Below are positions 8,744-21,211 of a stretch of 44,241 nt of DNA, piece by piece. Both the position numbers and the translations under genes were made by a program. The notes below the pieces were generated by a model, which was not told the origin of the DNA, made no database searches, and worked only from the letters and a program-made list of their open reading frames with translations. Position 1 is the stretch's first letter. Every line of letters starts with the position of its first letter. Origin of the DNA: Holosporaceae bacterium (lineage in GTDB: Bacteria > Pseudomonadota > Alphaproteobacteria > UBA3830); the NCBI GenBank assembly GCA_031262635.1, contig JAISHN010000095.1, forward strand, positions 1 through 44,241, given 5' to 3'.

Positions 8744-10651
8744 GTGGCGCGGCTATTTTGTCTTTTATTCTGCTTGAGCGCGGCTTTTCAACTAAGAGCG
8801 GAGACGGATTTGTTTGATAAACTAATATCCAAAGTTTTTAACGCGTTTGATAAAGAAGAGAAGAAAAACGAGCAAGAAGAAAAGCGACGCGAAGATCGCG
8901 AAAGACACAAAAAACACGAAATGTATGAAGACGACGAAAACAACCGCCGCAAAGAACCTCGTCGCGACCATGATAAGGTTGAAGAGCCTCTTATTCCTAG
9001 AAAAGAATTCTTTCCCGAAGGCGCGATTACCGAGGCGTTTATTAGTCCGACCGGAGATAAAGTCGCGTGCGTTACGAAAACAAACAGTCTTAAAGGCGTT
9101 AAAATAATTTCTATCGCCGAAGAAGATTCGTTTCGTCTTATTAACGACGGCGCGCTTATTGAAGAAGCGCGATTCGCAAGCTCAGACGATATCGTCTACG
9201 TTCGTCGCGACCTCGAAAGAGGCGTAGCTCATTTAACAAAGATTGATCTAGAATCAAAAGAACGAAAAAATCTATCTCCGATAAGCGACGCAAAGTCCAT
9301 TGCGATAACGGCTGTCGGAAGGGGCAAAATTATCGCAAGTTCAAGCGACGGCAAGGAGTATTTTTTGCATAAAATCGATTTGTCGACCGGCCGTCGCGAG
9401 CTAATTAAAAGAGACGACGCTCCGCTGATCGCGTTTTTCGACAATAATTTAACGCTAAGATTGTATTATAAAAACGCCTCTCGCCAAGAAGCGGACGTTT
9501 TTGCCGTCGACGGAACAGGAGATGAAAAATTAATAGATCATATAGAATTAGATCGAGAAAAATACCTCTCTGCGACCGAGGATCATTATCATAAGTTAAG
9601 CGTTGGCGAAAACGGACGGGCGACGATAACGTCTTCGGATTTAAAAAGCGGCTCGCGGCGCAAGATAGAGATATCGAATGTTTCAGATTTAAAGGATTGT
9701 CGGATATTTTTGGACGCGGACAAAAAACCGCTTATCGCTACGATCGTTGAAGGCAGAATAGATAACGTCCCTTTAAGCGACGCCGCCAAGCCTTTGGTTA
9801 AGCGTTTGAACGAATTGTTTAAAGATTCCGATTGGTCGCCAATAAACTTGACGAAGGGCGGAAATTTGTGGCTTATAGTCGTTCATAATCCCCGCCGTCC
9901 AGATGAATATTACGTCTTCGACGTTAGAAACGAACGAGCAAAGCGCGTAACGGCAGCATTTTCTTTTTCCGAAGAAAAGACGCGTCCGACGCGTTGCGTG
10001 AAAATCCCAACGAAAAAAGGCTCGTTTATCCGCGGATATTTAACCAAAAACGCCGGTCATTCGGTCAAGTCTCCTTTAGTTTTAATGGCTTCCGCGAAAA
10101 ATGGCGGTTGGAAATTTCATTCCATCGCGCAACTGCTCGCTAACAGAGGATACGCCGTTTTGCGTTTTAATTGTCCAAATTCAAAAGGTTCTTCTCTTAA
10201 AATATCGGACGTATATAACGCGATAGATTGGTGTTTTGAAAATAAAATCGCCGAACCTGGAAAGGTCAACGTTATCGCTGCCGGAGCGGACAGCCCCGCG
10301 GCGTTTGACGCTTTTCTGAAAGATCATGAGAGTTTTGAGAGCTGCGTTTTGCTGCATCCAGTTTTTTCAGAAAAAACCCGCGAACGCGCCGGTATAAAAA
10401 AACCGCTGCTCGTCGCGTCCCTTTCGAGCAATAAAAGCTACCCAAATCTCGCGTCCGCAAGCCCTCGAGCCTCGTTCGTTAGATTTGTAAAAGCGGAAGC
10501 TAACGCATTTGTCGGACTAAATGCATTTGTTGGACTAATAGAAATATTCCTTGCGAAAGTCGAAAAGAATTCGCGTTATGAAAAAATGTCCGAAAAAGAG
10601 ATTGAAGCGTTTGAACCTATATCCGACGGACTAGGTTTGCTGGATCGCTAG
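8744..10651 (+). CDS. S9 (prolyl oligopeptidase/DPP) family-like exported protein with a degenerate catalytic region
   Basis: GTG start 5 nt after GGAGAGG. Signal peptide (LFCLSAAFQLRA) and a highly charged KE/R-rich segment, followed by a beta-propeller-like middle and an alpha/beta-hydrolase-like C-terminus (GYAVLRFNCPNSKGS...VNVIAAGADSPAAF). I could not find a GxSxG nucleophile elbow or a plausible Asp/His. Confidence 0.55.
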   Translation: MARLFCLLFCLSAAFQLRAETDLFDKLISKVFNAFDKEEKKNEQEEKRREDRERHKKHEMYEDDENNRRKEPRRDHDKVEEPLIPRKEFFPEGAITEAFISPTGDKVACVTKTNSLKGVKIISIAEEDSFRLINDGALIEEARFASSDDIVYVRRDLERGVAHLTKIDLESKERKNLSPISDAKSIAITAVGRGKIIASSSDGKEYFLHKIDLSTGRRELIKRDDAPLIAFFDNNLTLRLYYKNASRQEADVFAVDGTGDEKLIDHIELDREKYLSATEDHYHKLSVGENGRATITSSDLKSGSRRKIEISNVSDLKDCRIFLDADKKPLIATIVEGRIDNVPLSDAAKPLVKRLNELFKDSDWSPINLTKGGNLWLIVVHNPRRPDEYYVFDVRNERAKRVTAAFSFSEEKTRPTRCVKIPTKKGSFIRGYLTKNAGHSVKSPLVLMASAKNGGWKFHSIAQLLANRGYAVLRFNCPNSKGSSLKISDVYNAIDWCFENKIAEPGKVNVIAAGADSPAAFDAFLKDHESFESCVLLHPVFSEKTRERAGIKKPLLVASLSSNKSYPNLASASPRASFVRFVKAEANAFVGLNAFVGLIEIFLAKVEKNSRYEKMSEKEIEAFEPISDGLGLLDR

Positions 10652-10698
10652 GATTCTTCTGTGTTCGTTATTTTTTGGGGAGCTAGCCCGAAGTCCAA

Positions 10699-10765
10699 CG
10701 AAGGATCCAAGCGATTTTCAGACTTCTTCGCCGTATGGATCCTTTGCTTTGTTCTGAGATGACGA
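10699..10765. repeat. REP-A palindromic element, partial copy at the left border of the GC-rich island
   Basis: cgaaggatccaagcg...cgtatggatcctttgc...ctgagatgacgag matches the central and right-arm parts of the full copies at 22356 and 29064. Confidence 0.6.
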
Positions 10766-11065
10766 GAGAGAGTCGTCTTTCAGCGATGTTGGACGCGCGC
10801 GACAGCGGATCAAAGTCCGGGAAGCGCTCAATTCGAGGCGGCCGGCAGCGACCAAATCCGCTGCTTCACGCCTATTTCCGAGGGAATCGACGAGCCTATG
10901 AAGATTCTCGAAAACGAAGACAAAGCCGATAAGAGGATCTTCAACATAGGCAACCCAGACAATATGATAAGTGTCAAGGAGCTGGCGTTCAAGCTGTCAG
11001 AGGAAGCGAAGAAGGACCCTACCAGGAGCGAGATGGCTGATAGGGCGCGGACAGGGCGTTTCAAG
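10763..11065 (+). pseudogene. Remnant of an SDR-type NAD-dependent epimerase/dehydratase (ArnA C-terminal domain / UDP-glucuronate decarboxylase-like)
   Basis: The frame of ORF 10898..11236, extended upstream to the in-frame TGA at 10760, reads ...AAGSDQIRCFTPISEGIDEPMKILENEDKADKRIFNIGNPDNMISVKELAFKLSEEAKKDP... This parallels the ArnA segment [23 protein letters not shown]...[23 protein letters not shown] (recalled from memory). Only about 75 residues of a protein over 300 aa remain. There is no Rossmann N-terminus and no proper start. Confidence 0.6.
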
Positions 11066-11099
11066 TTTGTGTCTGCACTGCGTAGTTTGTGTATTGCTA

Positions 11100-12365
11100 T
11101 TATCTTTTCCTACGCGGGCTTTGTAACGGCCTGGCTTCCATCAGCAGAGCCGGCAAGTGAGATCCTTGTAGCGCCAGCCTCATGTCAGGCGACAGGTCGG
11201 GCATGCACGGGCATTGGACCAACCGTTGTGCCGTAGGCGACAGTCTTGGCAGGCGCACCGCCATATCCATAGCTGCTATCGAGTCGCATGATGTGTCTAA
11301 AATCAGGCTCCAGTGATCGACCAGTTTCCCGTCGTGTTCCGCTGTAGTCTCGATCAGTTTTAGGATGTTCCTGGGCAGAGCTTTGGAGTGCAGGTGCACG
11401 AGGCCTTTTAGGTGGTCGCATACGCTGTGCAGGTGCCCGAGGCGAGTAAGGTTGACTCCGGTTCTGTACACTAAGTATTCCTCGATTTCTATTTTCATGC
11501 TTATCAGGCCTTGTATGTAGGTGATCAGATCTTCGTAGGCCGATCTGAGCCAGCGGGCGTCCAGTTCATCCTCATAATTTTCGCTGTAGATAGCGCGAGC
11601 CAGGACTCCGGATTTGGTTTGCAGGGTCGGTAGCAACTTTATGAGCGAAGCGGAGTGTCGGCAGTGTGTGCTTTTCCATAGCGTTTCTTCTAAGGGCCAC
11701 AGTTTTCCGATCAGTCGGGTGAGCTGGGTGCGCGCTGTTTCGTGTGGGAGTGTTGGCAGGCCGATCGGCTGTGGGCCACCGGTAAGTCGCACGACAGCGT
11801 TTTGGTTTTCAGGCTCTGTCTGCACAAGTGTATTTGTGGTCCATGGTGTCGGGGTTTCTGCCCCGTTGTCGGCGGCGTCTGGGTGCGTTGATTCAAGCTG
11901 GTGGTCCGCTCCGGCCATCAGGAGTGTCTCCAGTTTTCTGAATAGTGGTTTAGCTGATTTTGAGGTGGGGCGAGTTCCCAGAAGCTCACATAGATCTTTG
12001 AAGGTTGTCTGGGCCTGTCCGTCTAGTCCCATGTTGTTATCGTACATTCTTATCGCGTTGCCCAATGATTTCCTTTTTTTGAATAAGGCTTCAAGTCCGT
12101 CGATTGATCCGTAGTCGTCGGGCCTTGGCCGCACACTTTGTCCTAGTCGCCAGTATTCAGCGTCAGCTGGTGTTTGAGGTATCCAGGCGTCTAGCGTACG
12201 TTCTGCTAGTCGACAAATGAACTGGCGTAGTACAGGACCGTCTGTGTTCAGGCCGCGGTGGGCGGAGTGGTGTCGTATGGCGGCCGCAGCGTAGTCGTGG
12301 AACGGTAACGCACCTGATAGTGTTAACCAGATAAGAAACGGTACGTGAGTGCTAGTTGTTCGCAT
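11100..12365 (-). CDS. Island gene 4: orphan exported protein (421 aa), no recognisable family
   Basis: AAGGAG sits 8 nt upstream of the ATG at 12365. N-terminal signal-like segment VPFLIWLTLSGALPF...YAAAA. Same strand as the three upstream genes. Contains a repeated L[GV]HLHS motif. Confidence 0.6.
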   Translation of the reverse strand: MRTTSTHVPFLIWLTLSGALPFHDYAAAAIRHHSAHRGLNTDGPVLRQFICRLAERTLDAWIPQTPADAEYWRLGQSVRPRPDDYGSIDGLEALFKKRKSLGNAIRMYDNNMGLDGQAQTTFKDLCELLGTRPTSKSAKPLFRKLETLLMAGADHQLESTHPDAADNGAETPTPWTTNTLVQTEPENQNAVVRLTGGPQPIGLPTLPHETARTQLTRLIGKLWPLEETLWKSTHCRHSASLIKLLPTLQTKSGVLARAIYSENYEDELDARWLRSAYEDLITYIQGLISMKIEIEEYLVYRTGVNLTRLGHLHSVCDHLKGLVHLHSKALPRNILKLIETTAEHDGKLVDHWSLILDTSCDSIAAMDMAVRLPRLSPTAQRLVQCPCMPDLSPDMRLALQGSHLPALLMEARPLQSPRRKR

Positions 12366-12540
12366 GTGGGTAGCTCCTTTTATTTTATGTGCAGTTCCGT
12401 TTTACCCGCATTCTTATTCAGCGCTTTTGATTTTCGCCTAGTCTTATCTCGCGAGTCGACCCGGTTGCGGCCTGCCTCTCTAGGGCATCTTGGTTCCAGG
12501 TCGACGAGCCAGATTTTCTGTGGTAAGAGTTACCTGTAAC

Positions 12541-13206
12541 CTACCAGTGAGTTATGCCGCCCGCACCTCTCACCAGCGTCGCCGTTCCGCTCGGCGCTGT
12601 CGACACGGTCTTTGGTATCGCGTCGAAAGCCGCCACCGCTGCGTCTATGACTGCTTGTTGATCAGGGTCTGTTGCGTCGTGGCGCAGCACTTCAGCTACC
12701 ATCAGTTCGGTGGCGTTCATGAACGTTCGTTGCTCCGTCGTCTTAAGTCCTCTAGGCAAGGAGAAGTAACTGAGCAGCAGCTCTCGGACTTCAGGCCAGC
12801 GGCTCATATCGCCCAGGCGGTGCGTTAGTTGGTAGCCTATGGCGTGTTTGGCTGCTGGAAGAGGGTGTCCCGCCGTCAATCCGGCCTCCGTGTCCTTGAT
12901 TGGTCCACGTTGTGTATTCAGGAATTGGTCTAGTCTCTCCTGAGGCGTCCAGTCGTTGTATTGCACAAGCGAGCCTATTTCGACTATTTTCCTAAACGCG
13001 AAGATAGACGAGACCGTATGTTCCTTAGCACCCTGCTTCGGCCCGGCCGCCCTCACGACGAAACCCGCGGTCGCCCCGCCGTATCGGTCTTTGACCGCGA
13101 GCAGAGCAGCCCTCGTGAGGGCTCCGGCCTGGGCGGTTTCAGCTGTGGAGATGCCCAGCGCAATCAGCGCGGCGTACGCCAGGGTAGTTTTGGATTCTGT
13201 GTTCAT
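12541..13206 (-). CDS. Island gene 3: orphan exported protein (221 aa)
   Basis: GGAAAGGAAA SD sits upstream of the ATG at 13206. Signal peptide MNTESKTTLAYAALIALGISTAETAQA. No family recognised. Confidence 0.6.
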   Translation of the reverse strand: MNTESKTTLAYAALIALGISTAETAQAGALTRAALLAVKDRYGGATAGFVVRAAGPKQGAKEHTVSSIFAFRKIVEIGSLVQYNDWTPQERLDQFLNTQRGPIKDTEAGLTAGHPLPAAKHAIGYQLTHRLGDMSRWPEVRELLLSYFSLPRGLKTTEQRTFMNATELMVAEVLRHDATDPDQQAVIDAAVAAFDAIPKTVSTAPSGTATLVRGAGGITHW

Positions 13207-13259
13207 TTTTTGTTTCCTTTCCGTTATGTTGTTTAGTCGTTACGAACGTTTTATTGCCT

Positions 13260-13733
13260 TCAGTATGTGTCGAAGGTGCCTTGTCCCCTCTTTTGTGGCT
13301 GTCCTTTTCGTCTCTCCGTCGCTCCGGCTCGACTCAGGGCTTCCAGAACTTCCGGGCTGGGCGGTTGGGTTAGCTTGAGCGCCTGCGCGTTCGCTTCGAC
13401 CAGGGCGGCCCGACCTTGTTCGTCTCCTCCGATCGCGCGTTCTTGTCGGAGCGCGTCGTACCTCGCGGCGTACGCTTGCCAGGCCGCTTGCTCTGCCGGC
13501 GGTTTCGCACCGGCGACTGCTTGCAGTCGTGCGTATTCGTTTTCGATGGTCTGCGGGTCCGTTTTGCCCTGCTGGCCCTGGTCTTCTTTGTGTCCCAAGT
13601 CTATTTCCCCTATTCGGAACGGGTTAGTGGACGCGGCTAGCAAAGCTTGCATCTCCGCGGCCGTGACTGTGCCCGCTCCCAGTAGGCTTAGCATTATCGC
13701 GGCCAGTCCACCGCGGCTCGATGAGTTAACCAT
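13260..13733 (-). CDS. Island gene 2: small orphan exported Ala/Gln-rich protein (157 aa from the internal ATG)
   Basis: The ATG at 13733 is preceded by AAAGGAG. Signal peptide MVNSSSRGGLAAIMLSLLGAGTVTAAE. The longer track ORF (to 13871) has no SD and would overlap gene 1. Confidence 0.55.
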   Translation of the reverse strand: MVNSSSRGGLAAIMLSLLGAGTVTAAEMQALLAASTNPFRIGEIDLGHKEDQGQQGKTDPQTIENEYARLQAVAGAKPPAEQAAWQAYAARYDALRQERAIGGDEQGRAALVEANAQALKLTQPPSPEVLEALSRAGATERRKGQPQKRGQGTFDTY

Positions 13734-13794
13734 AGTGTATCTCCTTTCGTCTGTGTTCCGTTTCTTCGTAAGTGCTCGACCCTGCTGTCCGTTT

Positions 13795-14631
13795 CTACAA
13801 GCAGCGCCACAGCGCTGTGGCTGTGACCCGGTAGCCGCCCGTCCGGTGTTTGTAGCTAGAGGTTTCCTCAAGCTGTCCTACGGTAGTTTTCAGGTTCTGT
13901 CGCACGCTGTAGCCGAACGTGTGCACAGCCTTTATGTCGACCGACCAACGTCGCGTTAGGGGTCGCATCCATCCGACTCCCGCTTCTGGGCACGCCAACG
14001 TTCTGCGGCCAGCTTCCGTTGAGTGGTCCCGAGCCTTGAGTTCCGTGCGGGTGAGCAGGAAACCGGCGGCCAGGTAAGGCAGCCCGTACGTGCTACTGTT
14101 GTAGCCGAGGAGACCTAGCGCGTGCAGTTCCACGGGGCTTGTGCTTGCCACTAGTTTCGCGTATGGTCCCACGTCCAGATTTGTCTTGTTTCTCCCTCCG
14201 AGGTCGATAGCCACCGTCAAGCCGGCGGCTATGGAGTTGCCGCTTACTTGCAGCGCCGTCAGAGCGAGTGTTCCTTTGCAAGCCCAGGACGTTTTCTTCG
14301 CTGTGTTGTCGTTAAGCAGTCCGTAGTGTCTACCGTCGGAAGCCACCCATGCGGTTGGTGTAGTCGCTGGTTGCAGGTTTACTCGCGAGCAGCCTAATGT
14401 CAGCCCTTCCGATACGTTGTGGCGAGCCTGGGCAGCTGTTATACCTACACCCAGGTGCAACCCGCTGGGGTCACGGGCAGCCGTACCTTCGCGGTCATTC
14501 ACGCCTTCGTTGTTTTCTGCCGTTGTCGGTTGATCGGTACAGTATGTCGGCGTTGCAGACACGAACAGCGCATTTGCAACAGCAAATAACATAGTGCGAA
14601 CGCATATGTATTTTAAAGCCCTTTTCTTCAT
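13795..14631 (-). CDS. Island gene 1: putative small beta-barrel outer-membrane protein (OMP_b-brl/porin-like), 278 aa
   Basis: The ATG at 14631 is preceded by AAGGAAG. Signal peptide MKKRALKYICVRTMLFAVANALFVSA. Alternating hydrophobic and Gly/aromatic strands run throughout (GLHLGVGITAA, GLTVAIDLGG, HALGLLGYNSSTYGLPYLAAGFLL, WSVDIKAVHTFGYSV, GGYRVTATALW). Confidence 0.55.
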   Translation of the reverse strand: MKKRALKYICVRTMLFAVANALFVSATPTYCTDQPTTAENNEGVNDREGTAARDPSGLHLGVGITAAQARHNVSEGLTLGCSRVNLQPATTPTAWVASDGRHYGLLNDNTAKKTSWACKGTLALTALQVSGNSIAAGLTVAIDLGGRNKTNLDVGPYAKLVASTSPVELHALGLLGYNSSTYGLPYLAAGFLLTRTELKARDHSTEAGRRTLACPEAGVGWMRPLTRRWSVDIKAVHTFGYSVRQNLKTTVGQLEETSSYKHRTGGYRVTATALWRCL

Positions 14632-14830
14632 ATCTTCCTTTCTTACTCCTAAATATAAAATCAAAATTATGAATATACAACTTCACCTTGTAATGCAAGT
14701 CATAATTGCAAATAAAAATCTAAAAACCTGAACTCAAAATATACTATTAAGCGAGTTTTTACATTGAAATTTCAATTATTCTCACTCTTCTTATCTCAAT
14801 AAAATACTTCAATAGGTTACACCACTTTCC
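14632..14830 (-). promoter_or_regulatory. AT-rich putative promoter/leader region of the island operon
   Basis: Composition drops abruptly to a very AT-rich tract directly upstream of island gene 1. The minus strand contains TTACAA-N16-CATAAT and TTGCAT-N15-TATATT candidates. None is verified. Confidence 0.3.
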
Positions 14831-14979
14831 CTACACATTGTTGCTTTTCGATCACGCATTTTACGGTTGCGCCACGTCCCTCTCATCGCCTAACCTCCTC
14901 GTTTCCCTCATCCCGCCTCCGCATTGCAAAAACCGCCGGGCGGCTTATACTGTCGCTCAATATAAATGCGAGTCTGAAT

Positions 14980-16194
14980 ATGCGTCTTCCCTCCGTTATT
15001 AGTTTCGGTTGTCGTTTGAACGCTCGCGAGGCGGAGTTGATACGAGGCTTCGCCGAAGAGTTGGGCGTTGTCGATTATACTCTGATAAACACCTGCGCCG
15101 TTACCGCGGAGGCTGAAAGGAAGCTCCGGCAGACTATTCGTCGTCTGCGCGGCGAAAATCCCGACGTAAAAATCATCCTCACCGGCTGCGCTTCGGAACT
15201 GCGTCCCGATTATTACCTGAAAATGGAGGGAGTCGTCGGGATCATCTCGAACAAAACGAAGCTTTCAAAGTCCGAGTATCTAAAATACGCGACAAACAAA
15301 CCGATCAAACCAGTCGGTAAGTTCGAGAAAATCCGCGGATTTTTGCAGATTCAGAACGGCTGCGATCACAAATGCTCGTACTGCGTCACGCGTCTGACTC
15401 GCGGCCCCAACGTCAGCTTCGACGAAGACGAAATCGCAAGCCAGGCGAGAGAAATGCTCGCGAAAGGATATAAAGAGATCGTCCTGACCGGAATTAATAT
15501 TTCATCTTACGGGCAGAACCTTGCGCCGCCCAAAAATTTGGCCTTTATAATAAGATATCTGCTGAAAAACGTTCCCGAATTGAAGAGATTGGGGCTTTCT
15601 TCGCTCGATCCCGCGGATATCGACGACGAATTGATAAAAATAATCGGTTCCGAAGAGAGATTGCTGCCGCATATACACGAGAGCGTCCAATCTGGCGACA
15701 ATACGATCCTGAAACGCATGATCCGCCGGCATACGCGGGAGCAAGTCATAGAGACGAACGAAAAGATCCTGAGCGCTCGGCCGGACGCGATTCTCGGCGC
15801 GGATATAATCGTCGGATTTCCAACCGAGACCGACGAGATGTTTGAAAATACGAAAAGATTGCTTACGGAAGGGAAATTTTCTCTGCTCCATATATTCCCG
15901 TATTCCAAAAGGCCTGGAACCCCCGCCGCTCTCATGCCGCAGGTCGAAAAGAGCGTCAAATTGAATCGCGCGAAGGAGCTGAAAAAGCTATCCGACGAGA
16001 TTCTGCGGGCTAAATTGTTGGAACAAGTCGGAAAAGACGCGGTCGCTGTCGCCGAGGACGAGGTCAACGCGAGAACGAATTCGTTTTTACGGGTAAAGTC
16101 GTCGCAAAAACTCGAAGCGGGCAGGGAGTATCTATTCCGTTGCGAGTCCGTCGACAAGAACGTTATAATCGGCCGACCGATTAAAAATTATTGA
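14980..16194 (+). CDS. mtaB: tRNA (t6A37) methylthiotransferase MtaB / MiaB-like radical SAM enzyme
   Basis: N-terminal UPF0004 domain (FGCRLNAREAE), radical SAM CDHKCSYC motif, TRAM-like C-terminus, 404 aa. Confidence 0.85.
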   Translation: MRLPSVISFGCRLNAREAELIRGFAEELGVVDYTLINTCAVTAEAERKLRQTIRRLRGENPDVKIILTGCASELRPDYYLKMEGVVGIISNKTKLSKSEYLKYATNKPIKPVGKFEKIRGFLQIQNGCDHKCSYCVTRLTRGPNVSFDEDEIASQAREMLAKGYKEIVLTGINISSYGQNLAPPKNLAFIIRYLLKNVPELKRLGLSSLDPADIDDELIKIIGSEERLLPHIHESVQSGDNTILKRMIRRHTREQVIETNEKILSARPDAILGADIIVGFPTETDEMFENTKRLLTEGKFSLLHIFPYSKRPGTPAALMPQVEKSVKLNRAKELKKLSDEILRAKLLEQVGKDAVAVAEDEVNARTNSFLRVKSSQKLEAGREYLFRCESVDKNVIIGRPIKNY

Positions 16195-16333
16195 CATAAA
16201 CAAGATTTGATCTATCTTTTTATATTTTACAAATAAATCGCTATAAAGAAAAAATTTTTTCTTAAAAAATATATTGTATATTTATGCAATAATGTATATC
16301 TTTATATATAAATAAAAAATAGGAAAAATAAGA

Positions 16334-17107
16334 ATGAAAAATACGCTAAAATTTGTAGTGCTTACTGGAGGAATATTATCAAACGCAGCGTTTGGAACGC
16401 AGCCGGCACTAGTTCCTGTGATGGATTTTCGATATGAGACACAAATAACAAGACTAGAATGCGATTCCTACGATACAACTACGGGTAACGAAAGAACTTC
16501 TATAGTTAAGATTTTATTCGTTCCCGCTCAAGTACAATGTACTCATATCAGTATTGGACATATTACTAGACATATTGACCCTCAAGGTTTCGTAACGGTA
16601 GAACATCCTCTTGGTATCCCTTTAAGAGGACTTCAATGGCTTGATTTCGCTCATTTATATAAAATTGAGTTCTTTTCAGCGAACGGCGGCGCGGCTACTC
16701 TTATTGCTCCGCCCAATTTAACAAAACTGGAATTCTGTGGCGAAGAGAAACGCTTAAATTTGCAAGCTTGTAATGCTCTAGCAACATGCACCGTTGAGGA
16801 CTGCTTAAATGAACGCACCCTCGGCGCATGCCGTTTGCCTGATAATTTGTCTAGACTTCGACATGTCTTTTATAACAAAACTCGTCGACTACCACCTGCC
16901 GACCTCTGCAATGGCTGGCCGGCGCGTTTTCTAGCAAATAGGCCGAGAATTATCACTCATCACCATGCTCCTGCTTCTGGACTAAGGGCCTTGCTTAAAT
17001 CTCGGGAAACTTCTACTACGGCCGCCTTAGAACGCTATGGCAATTTGCTTTTTACAGAATTTGCTACTCCCTGCTGCTTCGCTAGCGTTCCTATGACTCC
17101 TCCTTAA
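16334..17107 (+). CDS. Orphan exported Cys-rich protein with possible cysteine-containing LRR-like repeats
   Basis: AGGA sits upstream of the ATG. Signal peptide MKNTLKFVVLTGGILSNAAFG. The segment LTKLEFCGEEKRLNLQACNALATCTVEDCLNERTLGACRLPDNLSRLRHV is LRR-like. The gene is preceded by an extremely AT-rich 139 bp spacer. Confidence 0.55.
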   Translation: MKNTLKFVVLTGGILSNAAFGTQPALVPVMDFRYETQITRLECDSYDTTTGNERTSIVKILFVPAQVQCTHISIGHITRHIDPQGFVTVEHPLGIPLRGLQWLDFAHLYKIEFFSANGGAATLIAPPNLTKLEFCGEEKRLNLQACNALATCTVEDCLNERTLGACRLPDNLSRLRHVFYNKTRRLPPADLCNGWPARFLANRPRIITHHHAPASGLRALLKSRETSTTAALERYGNLLFTEFATPCCFASVPMTPP

Positions 17108-21136: not shown

Positions 21137-21211
21137 TGGAGCGGGCGAAGGGACTCGAACCCTCGACTTCAACCTTGGCAAGGTTGCGCTCTACCACTGA
21201 GCTACGCCCGC
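21137..21211 (-). tRNA. tRNA-Gly (anticodon GCC), CCA encoded
   Basis: The minus strand reads GCGGGCG-TA-GCTCAGTGGTAGAGC-G-CAACC-TTGCCAA-GGTTG-AAGTC-GAGGG-TTCGAGT-CCCTT-CGCCCGC-TCCA. This gives a perfect 7 bp acceptor stem and a canonical D loop and T loop. Confidence 0.93.

Follow-up and report, generated by a model that had tools for sequence, protein, structure and literature searches.

ORFan islets, small groups of genes without homologues, are common in uncultured symbionts. To our knowledge, no infection determinants other than lineage-specific periplasmic proteins have been described in the group to which Holospora belongs. Infection roles for such proteins have been documented in Holospora, and Holospora obtusa produces stage-specific periplasmic proteins of 89 kDa, 63 kDa and 5.4 kDa (PMC11909080). 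Contig JAISHN010000095.1 of a Holosporaceae bacterium (assembly GCA_031262635.1), analysed here over its positions 1 to 44,241 (hereafter the window), contains an anomalous block of about 3.6 kb. The block is compositionally foreign, lineage-specific and genuine, and carries four head-to-tail genes, designated OMP278, p157, p221 and p421, whose products have export-type N-termini and lack detectable homologues. It is best explained, with moderate confidence, as a laterally acquired islet that lacks an integrase, encodes four Sec-exported proteins behind a resident promoter and forms a lineage-specific envelope module.

The foreign character of the block is evident from several independent measures of composition. 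G+C content is 0.559 at positions 11061–14640 compared to 0.447 in the rest of the window (z = 5.1), with all other 3.6-kb windows at or below 0.484, and 500-nt windows across 11001–14500 have a G+C of 0.52–0.61 against about 0.45 elsewhere, in agreement with the rise in G+C described in a first-pass annotation of this DNA. The strand-symmetric tetranucleotide profile of the block deviates at z = 19 relative to the spread of other windows. Given their amino acids, the four block genes have synonymous codon likelihoods 5.4, 1.2, 3.6 and 5.0 standard deviations below those of host genes, and the anomaly is therefore not due to amino-acid content alone. T accounts for 10–17% of the sense strand of the block overall and 5–13% at third codon positions, and the spacers are just as T-poor. 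Over 11061–14558, the sense (minus) strand contains 28% A and 16% T with a G/C skew near zero; this A-over-T skew runs through the spacers and differs from the usual replication-strand pattern.

Boundaries were taken from change-points of island-versus-host Markov models (cumulative log-likelihood, 50-nt windows), which confine the foreign signature to about 10970–11060 on the left and 14558 on the right. The anomaly originally assigned to 10652–14830 is thus real, but extends only from about 11,000/11,060 to 14,558, that is, over some 3.6 rather than 4.2 kb. Composition had also been thought to switch immediately after the stop codon of the upstream gene (8744–10651); the change-point lies instead at about 10970–11060, and 10652–10950 has a host-like composition (log-likelihood ratio [LLR] host-like at 10700–10950) and holds a pseudogene fragment. 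The features of the block and its edges, in the order in which its genes are read, are as follows:

14632–14979, no strand assigned: AT-rich divergent intergenic region common to the cassette and mtaB; G+C 0.37 overall.
14557–14631, minus strand: 75 nt of host-like DNA encoding the OMP278 signal peptide; change-point at 14558, 75-nt LLR −7.4.
13795–14631, minus strand: OMP278, a 278-aa ORFan of chimeric composition and candidate outer-membrane beta-barrel.
13260–13733, minus strand: p157, an Ala/Gln/Glu-rich protein of 157 aa with a Sec-type N-terminus; AAGGAG 7 nt upstream.
12541–13206, minus strand: p221, an ORFan of 221 aa whose Sec-type N-terminus is predicted to be cleaved after AQA; AAAGGAA 8 nt upstream.
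12366–12540, minus strand: 175-nt spacer between p221 and p421, with a long predicted hairpin and no U-tract; RNA fold −48.5 kcal/mol, z = −2.7 versus shuffles.
11100–12365, minus strand: p421, a 421-aa ORFan with a Sec-type N-terminus (MRTTSTHVPFLIWLTLSGALPFHDYAAA); AAGGAG 8 nt upstream.
10970–11060, no strand assigned: left compositional junction, where host-type DNA gives way to island-type DNA; cumulative log-likelihood minimum at 10970, 50-nt windows clearly positive from 11050.
10844–11047, plus strand: fragment of an ArnA/PbgP3-type UDP-glucuronate decarboxylase gene, a pseudogene remnant; phmmer match to residues 238–306 of PDB chain 3slg_A, E = 5.9e-10.

The four open reading frames (ORFs) look like real genes by their coding signal. 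Their head-to-tail arrangement on the minus strand and the gaps of 61, 53 and 175 nt between them, both reported in the first-pass annotation, are confirmed by ORF calls. Together they comprise about 1,077 codons, all open, in a region where the local composition predicts a stop about every 27 codons and the other two sense frames hold 47 and 49 stops. The probability of such open lengths arising by chance at the local base composition is 3e-5 for OMP278, 3e-3 for p157, 2e-4 for p221 and 1.3e-7 for p421; period-3 signals are present in each (z = 4.1, 5.2, 9.4 and 7.7, respectively), and first codon positions are G-rich throughout. An AAGGAG-type Shine-Dalgarno sequence had been assigned to every gene at a distance of 7–8 nt, which applies to p157 and p421, but not to p221, with its AAAGGAA, or to OMP278, where AAGGAAG lies just 2–4 nt before the ATG. 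All four N-termini consist of a positively charged or polar start, a hydrophobic core of 12–15 residues with Kyte–Doolittle values of 1.9–2.4 and small residues at positions −3/−1, consistent with the Sec-type signals proposed for them previously; no second membrane segment is present in any of the proteins, with later 19-residue windows at or below 1.33. These signal-peptide and membrane calls come from a hydropathy heuristic rather than SignalP.

The layout of the genes is that of an operon, with a shared strand, short spacers, one upstream promoter region and no internal terminator, and they are probably co-transcribed. The AT-rich, promoter-like tract noted ahead of the first gene is borne out by a G+C of 0.24–0.28 across 14600–14800 and by promoter-like hexamers (ATTACA-17-CATAAT) at 14694–14666 on the minus strand of the AT-rich leader. 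A promoter scan of the region returned six sites compared to 2.2 expected; promoter-like sites are found just in this leader and near the 3′ end of the block, and no minus-strand terminator-like site was detected in the scan. The spacer between p221 and p421 folds around a 10-bp stem (GUCGACCUGG/CCGGGUCGAC). It has no match in Rfam, a sub-threshold snoRNA match being taken as chance, and may act as an mRNA processing or stability element or as an internal regulatory site.

The right junction of the block falls within a gene. Position 14558 is 73 nt inside OMP278, at the signal-peptidase site predicted between VSA and TP; by the same heuristic, the signal peptide has a hydrophobic core of 2.35 and no later 19-residue window exceeds 1.33. 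Codons 1–25 of OMP278 (MKKRALKYICVRTMLFAVANALFVS) have an island-versus-host LLR of −7.4, which is below every 75-nt island window (island mean +8.6, standard deviation 4.2, minimum −2.2; host mean −9.0, standard deviation 5.7). Codons 26–50 score +7.3, and the stretches encoding the signal peptides of p157, p221 and p421 score +4 to +8. Given the host-type codons 1–25 and the position of the junction at the signal-peptidase site, OMP278 looks like a fusion in which a resident segment of host-type DNA, comprising promoter, ribosome-binding site and signal peptide, precedes a mature part of foreign DNA. The cassette would therefore be driven and exported through resident signals. Neither the DNA of this host-type leader and signal peptide nor the peptide itself has a match in the relatives described below.

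The host is, judging from its proteins, an alphaproteobacterium related to uncultured ‘Holosporaceae’ known from gut metagenome-assembled genomes (MAGs). MtaB, encoded at 14980–16194, is 72–60% identical to homologues in MAGs of uncultured Holosporaceae from the guts of termites and from ruminants (rumen), and FtsY is up to 78% identical to proteins of the same MAGs. The genes of the window around the block are housekeeping genes, encoding M16 peptidases, TolC, GltX, ComEC, MtaB, FtsY, PurA and RdgB, with an unassigned 635-aa ORF flanking the block on one side and MtaB on the other. None of the 80 related loci examined encodes any of the four proteins, a comparison that is distant given that the closest relative shares only 72% MtaB identity. 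In 12 of 12 related loci, mtaB and ftsY lie directly side by side. The sequence on the upstream side of mtaB differs in almost all relatives, with a histidine kinase gene in L002, gmk and an outer-membrane protein (OMP) gene in L006 and L007, a type VI secretion system (T6SS) operon in L003 and L005, and a homologue of the window’s upstream gene in L004 and L008, where it is divergent from mtaB and its direct neighbour. Since the upstream DNA varies among relatives and none carries the cassette, the block appears to occupy a rearrangement hotspot and to be lineage-specific in public data. It also follows from L004 and L008 that the upstream gene is inverted in the window. This gene was named ‘S9-like’ in the first-pass annotation, a label that its lack of a peptidase match in Pfam or NCBIfam does not justify; it encodes a conserved exported protein of the clade, 28% identical in L008. 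A second lineage-specific insertion is present between mtaB and ftsY (16195–17107), comprising a 139-nt spacer of 14% G+C followed by a 257-aa ORF (16334–17107, plus strand) with a signal-peptide-like N-terminus, a third-position G+C of 0.32 and no family match.

Homology searches returned almost nothing beyond the proteins themselves. OMP278, p421 and p221 were each compared with 5.8e9 protein clusters and each found only itself, as did OMP278 in a filter-free full HMMER scan of 1.84e9 representatives; the search space is described as about 15 billion known proteins, with p157 compared with family collections and PDB only. None of the four proteins has a credible match in Pfam, NCBIfam, PHROGs, PADLOC or PDB, consistent with the initial view that no family is recognisable in p157, p221 and p421. 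A single match of p421 in JGI metagenomes (L083) proved spurious, corresponding to an antisense frame of an actinobacterial-type truB gene.

These findings are best accommodated in the following sequence of events. DNA of about 3.6 kb from an unsampled donor would have entered the chromosome of an uncultured, gut-associated Holosporaceae-type bacterium by illegitimate recombination that involved no integrase, tRNA or flanking repeats, at the rearrangement-prone region upstream of mtaB. Because the 3′ end of an arnA-like gene stops at the left junction, that gene may have been lost in the same event. Its four co-oriented and probably co-transcribed genes would direct all their products into the Sec pathway. 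OMP278 is probably an outer-membrane protein and possibly a small beta-barrel, which is plausible though unproven. The other three are predicted to be soluble, largely alpha-helical proteins that are periplasmic or surface-released. Such a cassette would most likely act as a lineage-specific cell-envelope or surface module in the dealings of a symbiont with its eukaryotic host or the gut environment, where the host-interaction role is suggested solely by analogy with the periplasmic infection proteins of Holospora (PMC11909080). A more ambitious version, which we regard as decidedly improbable, is that the four proteins are a previously unknown envelope apparatus of gut Holosporales, a new outer-membrane protein and three periplasmic or surface partners for attachment to, or entry into, eukaryotic host cells, acquired as a set from an unsampled donor and wired in through a resident promoter and signal peptide.

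Several observations weigh against the reading of the block as a laterally acquired envelope module. No donor lineage was found in the searches, which in the large collections cover three of the four proteins (OMP278, p421 and p221) and not p157, and no homologue or structure links the four proteins to a function. The suggestion that OMP278 might anchor or export the other three found no support. The left junction is not crossed by an independent contig, although contigs with p157, p421 (also in its 315-aa form), the S9-like gene or the remnant ORF were all sought. The junction at the signal peptide of OMP278 is placed by the composition of 75 nt. The gene caller of the window placed the starts of two genes further in, giving products of 183 and 315 aa; the long forms have better ribosome-binding sites than these internal starts, and the Logan gene call gives 278 aa for OMP278. 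OMP278 ends in ALWRCL (GGYRVTATALWRCL) rather than in an aromatic residue and contains five Cys in its mature part. It has no match to PF13505 or OmpA_membrane even at E ≤ 10, its beta-amphipathicity is weak (z = +1.7 versus shuffles), though the highest of ten proteins tested, and hhalign against a four-sequence OMP_b-brl family from L006, L007 and L008 gives P = 0.17 (probability 0.3%). Finally, the contrast between intact ORFs and a decayed neighbour had been taken as a sign of selection on the cassette, but the only other copy of the block DNA is 100% identical to the window and offers no variation to analyse, and the arnA-like gene may already have been a pseudogene before the block arrived.

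The alternative that best survives, while still unlikely, is that the block is recently acquired, functionless DNA, in which the ORFs are intact for lack of time to decay and the in-frame signal-peptide fusion is accidental. This would fit the wholly unameliorated composition, as expected of a recent arrival, and the complete identity of the sole other copy; with no homologues there is no evidence of conservation, and the prior for an in-frame junction is about one in three. It fits less well with the number of open codons across four ORFs, each with its own start, ribosome-binding site and signal peptide, next to an arnA-like gene that has been cut to about 70 recognisable codons. This last argument is limited in that it shows the ORFs to have been functional in the donor only, and not here.

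It is more doubtful that OMP278, and perhaps the whole block, derives from a resident, fast-evolving OMP_b-brl gene whose composition was shifted by a local mutation or selection regime. The rumen relatives carry OMP_b-brl/OmpA-like genes in L008 (3867–4682 and 9452–10186), L006 (8514–9302) and L007 (8431–9267), located near mtaB, ftsY or the S9-like gene and encoding proteins of about 245–278 aa that share only 20–24% identity among themselves; no clear member of this family is present in the 44-kb window. In favour of a resident origin, L006, L007 and L008 have 262–278-aa members of the family beside mtaB, the S9-like gene or ftsY, these proteins diverge fast, and the best local match of OMP278 is to one of them. 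The two proteins have a common motif (GLHLGVGITAAQARHNV/GFYLGLGVEAAELGHKV) at an equal distance from the signal peptide, and the hhalign alignment to the family is collinear over 160 columns. However, the similarity is not significant: the local match has E = 0.44 among 3,482 ORFs, the profile comparison gives the P value cited above, and a local hidden Markov model built from the four relatives’ OMPs scores OMP278 at E = 11. The relatives’ OMP genes are moreover host-like in G+C and T content, whereas the foreign signature is sharply bordered, runs through four genes and the spacers between them and extends to atypical synonymous sites, and OMP278 is oriented to mtaB unlike the OMP genes of L006 and L007. 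The same data bear on the earlier description of OMP278 as a beta-barrel, which they do not demonstrate: it has no match in Pfam (E ≤ 10), NCBIfam or PDB, its amphipathicity and profile scores are low, and a single-sequence AlphaFold2 (AF2) model has a predicted local distance difference test (pLDDT) score of 28.5 and is uninterpretable. Because the relatives’ OMPs also lack a terminal Phe, the non-aromatic C-terminus of OMP278 constitutes weak evidence against membership of their family.

Somewhat less probable again is an origin as leftover cargo of a decayed prophage or another mobile element whose mobility genes have been deleted, by analogy with lom and bor, which are phage-borne outer-membrane genes. 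Foreign composition, sharp borders and exported, accessory-type genes would be expected of such cargo, and there is a faint match to a PHROG ‘secreted protein’ (E = 0.043) and a truncated gene at the left junction. The latter is the gene remnant previously noted at the distal end of the operon, now identified as the ArnA/PbgP3 fragment listed above (E = 6e-10). It also matches ArnA chains in PDB at E = 1e-9 to 5e-8, is missing some 237 codons at the N-terminal end and some 66 at the C-terminal end, is host-like to about position 10950 and ends at the left junction. A 90-aa piece of the remnant has no match in Pfam, and the one reading frame upstream of it that was compared with PDB yields nothing recognisable. 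The palindromic repeat reported at this end amounts to two inverted repeats of 9 and 11 nt within the remnant, but nothing larger. Against a mobile element, no integrase, transposase or phage domain was detected with Pfam, NCBIfam or PHROGs, no flanking direct or att-like repeats of the block were found, and the sole tRNA in the window is distant (21137–21211); the absence of an integrase, transposase or tRNA from the borders had been noted at the outset. The block DNA has no match in 50,697 phage and 72,556 plasmid records, and OMP278 has none in IMG/VR. Compared to a classical genomic island, the block thus has the atypical composition and is absent from the corresponding site of relatives, but has no integrase or transposase, tRNA target or direct repeats.

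An assembly chimera or a contaminant placed between two host segments is very unlikely. The sequence is metagenomic and composition changes abruptly at both ends, and independent support is available at one end only: of the two borders for which spanning sequence was sought, the right one is crossed by Logan contig L001 (run SRR14710920), but the left one by none. L001 corresponds to window positions 13592–16436 at 100% identity, with 0.97 kb on the island side of the junction and 1.9 kb on the host side, and carries an identical OMP278 adjoining mtaB; it may derive from the same reads as the window. A further Logan contig, L082, corresponds to 12371–13270 and carries an identical copy of p221. 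In a chimera, moreover, the host chromosome would have to break off and resume between two genes that lie side by side in L004 and L008, and an ORF spans the right junction.

Immunity proteins are typically small, periplasmic, fast-evolving and gained horizontally. It is highly improbable that the three small exported proteins serve, as orphan immunity proteins of the periplasm, to counter T6SS effectors of neighbouring bacteria: these general traits fit, the T6SS operon of L003 and L005 has the position and orientation of the cassette relative to mtaB, and p157 has a sub-threshold T6SS_FHA_C match, but the block contains no effector, Hcp, VgrG or PAAR gene, that match falls short of the Pfam cut-off, and the idea relies on position, with no sequence or structural tie to any immunity family. 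The operon itself is visible as tssK-tssL-tssM-tssA, encoding TssK/VasE, DotU/TssL, IcmF/TssM and ImpA_N/TssA, divergent to mtaB at 2717–9900 of L003, a termite-gut MAG; on the short contig L005 (638–1939), also from a termite-gut MAG, TssK alone is seen. The p157 match, which spans 43 residues (E = 0.029), was likewise rejected as a T6SS TagH C-terminal domain, its 14.6 bits being well below the cut-off of 23.7.

For the remaining proteins, a few individual traits are discernible. p157 has no match in PDB below E = 0.26. Over 69 ungapped residues, p221 resembles the helical N-terminal part of Morganella PhoC (E = 0.036). An assignment to the class A acid phosphatases of the PAP2 superfamily was rejected: with a profile of 14 sequences drawn from plasmid records, p221 reaches −1.1 bits (hhalign P = 0.31), Pfam returns no PAP2 match and the catalytic motifs KX6RP, PSGH and SRX5HX3D are not present. 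Given that the family profile is blind to p221 and that these motifs are missing, the PhoC similarity is attributed to chance. p421 is predicted to be all-helical (alpha-amphipathicity z = +4.3), with a polar linker at about residues 161–207 and a duplicated His/Cys-rich motif; its single-sequence AF2 model contains helices only and, at pLDDT 41.8, is unusable. The motif, LGHLHSVCDHLKGLVHLHS, is encoded by a duplicated 26-nt segment (11388–11452, residues about 305–326) and could be a metal-binding site. His makes up 3.0% of the island proteins, compared to 1.3% in host proteins.

If expressed, the cassette contributes four protein families without known relatives to the cell envelope of an alphaproteobacterium that is uncultured and probably host-dependent. 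The junction in OMP278 provides a checkable example of how incoming DNA may be expressed and exported at once when it fuses to a promoter and signal peptide already in place. The value of the finding lies mainly in marking a target for later study; it settles no open question.

The block can be compared with four kinds of described system. p221 is similar in length to the class A phosphatases PhoC and PhoN, is also predicted to be periplasmic and has the 69-residue similarity, but differs in its negative profile and hhalign scores and in the missing catalytic motifs. OMP278 resembles the OMP_b-brl (PF13505)/OmpA-like proteins of L006, L007 and L008 in its length, in having a signal peptide and a Gly/aliphatic first-strand motif that comes after a polar stretch at the N-terminus, and in its collinear strand-like segments, non-aromatic C-terminus and place beside mtaB; it differs in its five mature-part Cys, its foreign composition and the lack of a significant match. 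Likeness to ORFan genomic islets encompasses atypical G+C, oligonucleotide and codon usage, sharp borders, absence from relatives, a rearrangement-prone site and genes without homologues, with the block set apart by the lack of an integrase, tRNA or direct repeats, by a border within a gene that yields a signal-peptide fusion and by its unusually strong AT skew. With the periplasmic proteins of Holospora obtusa, the block proteins have no sequence similarity in collection searches, and their host belongs to a gut clade distinct from Holospora; they are alike in being lineage-specific, Sec-exported (as predicted here) and without wider homologues, and in belonging to bacteria of the same order, and the Holospora proteins set a precedent for a part of periplasmic proteins in infecting a host.

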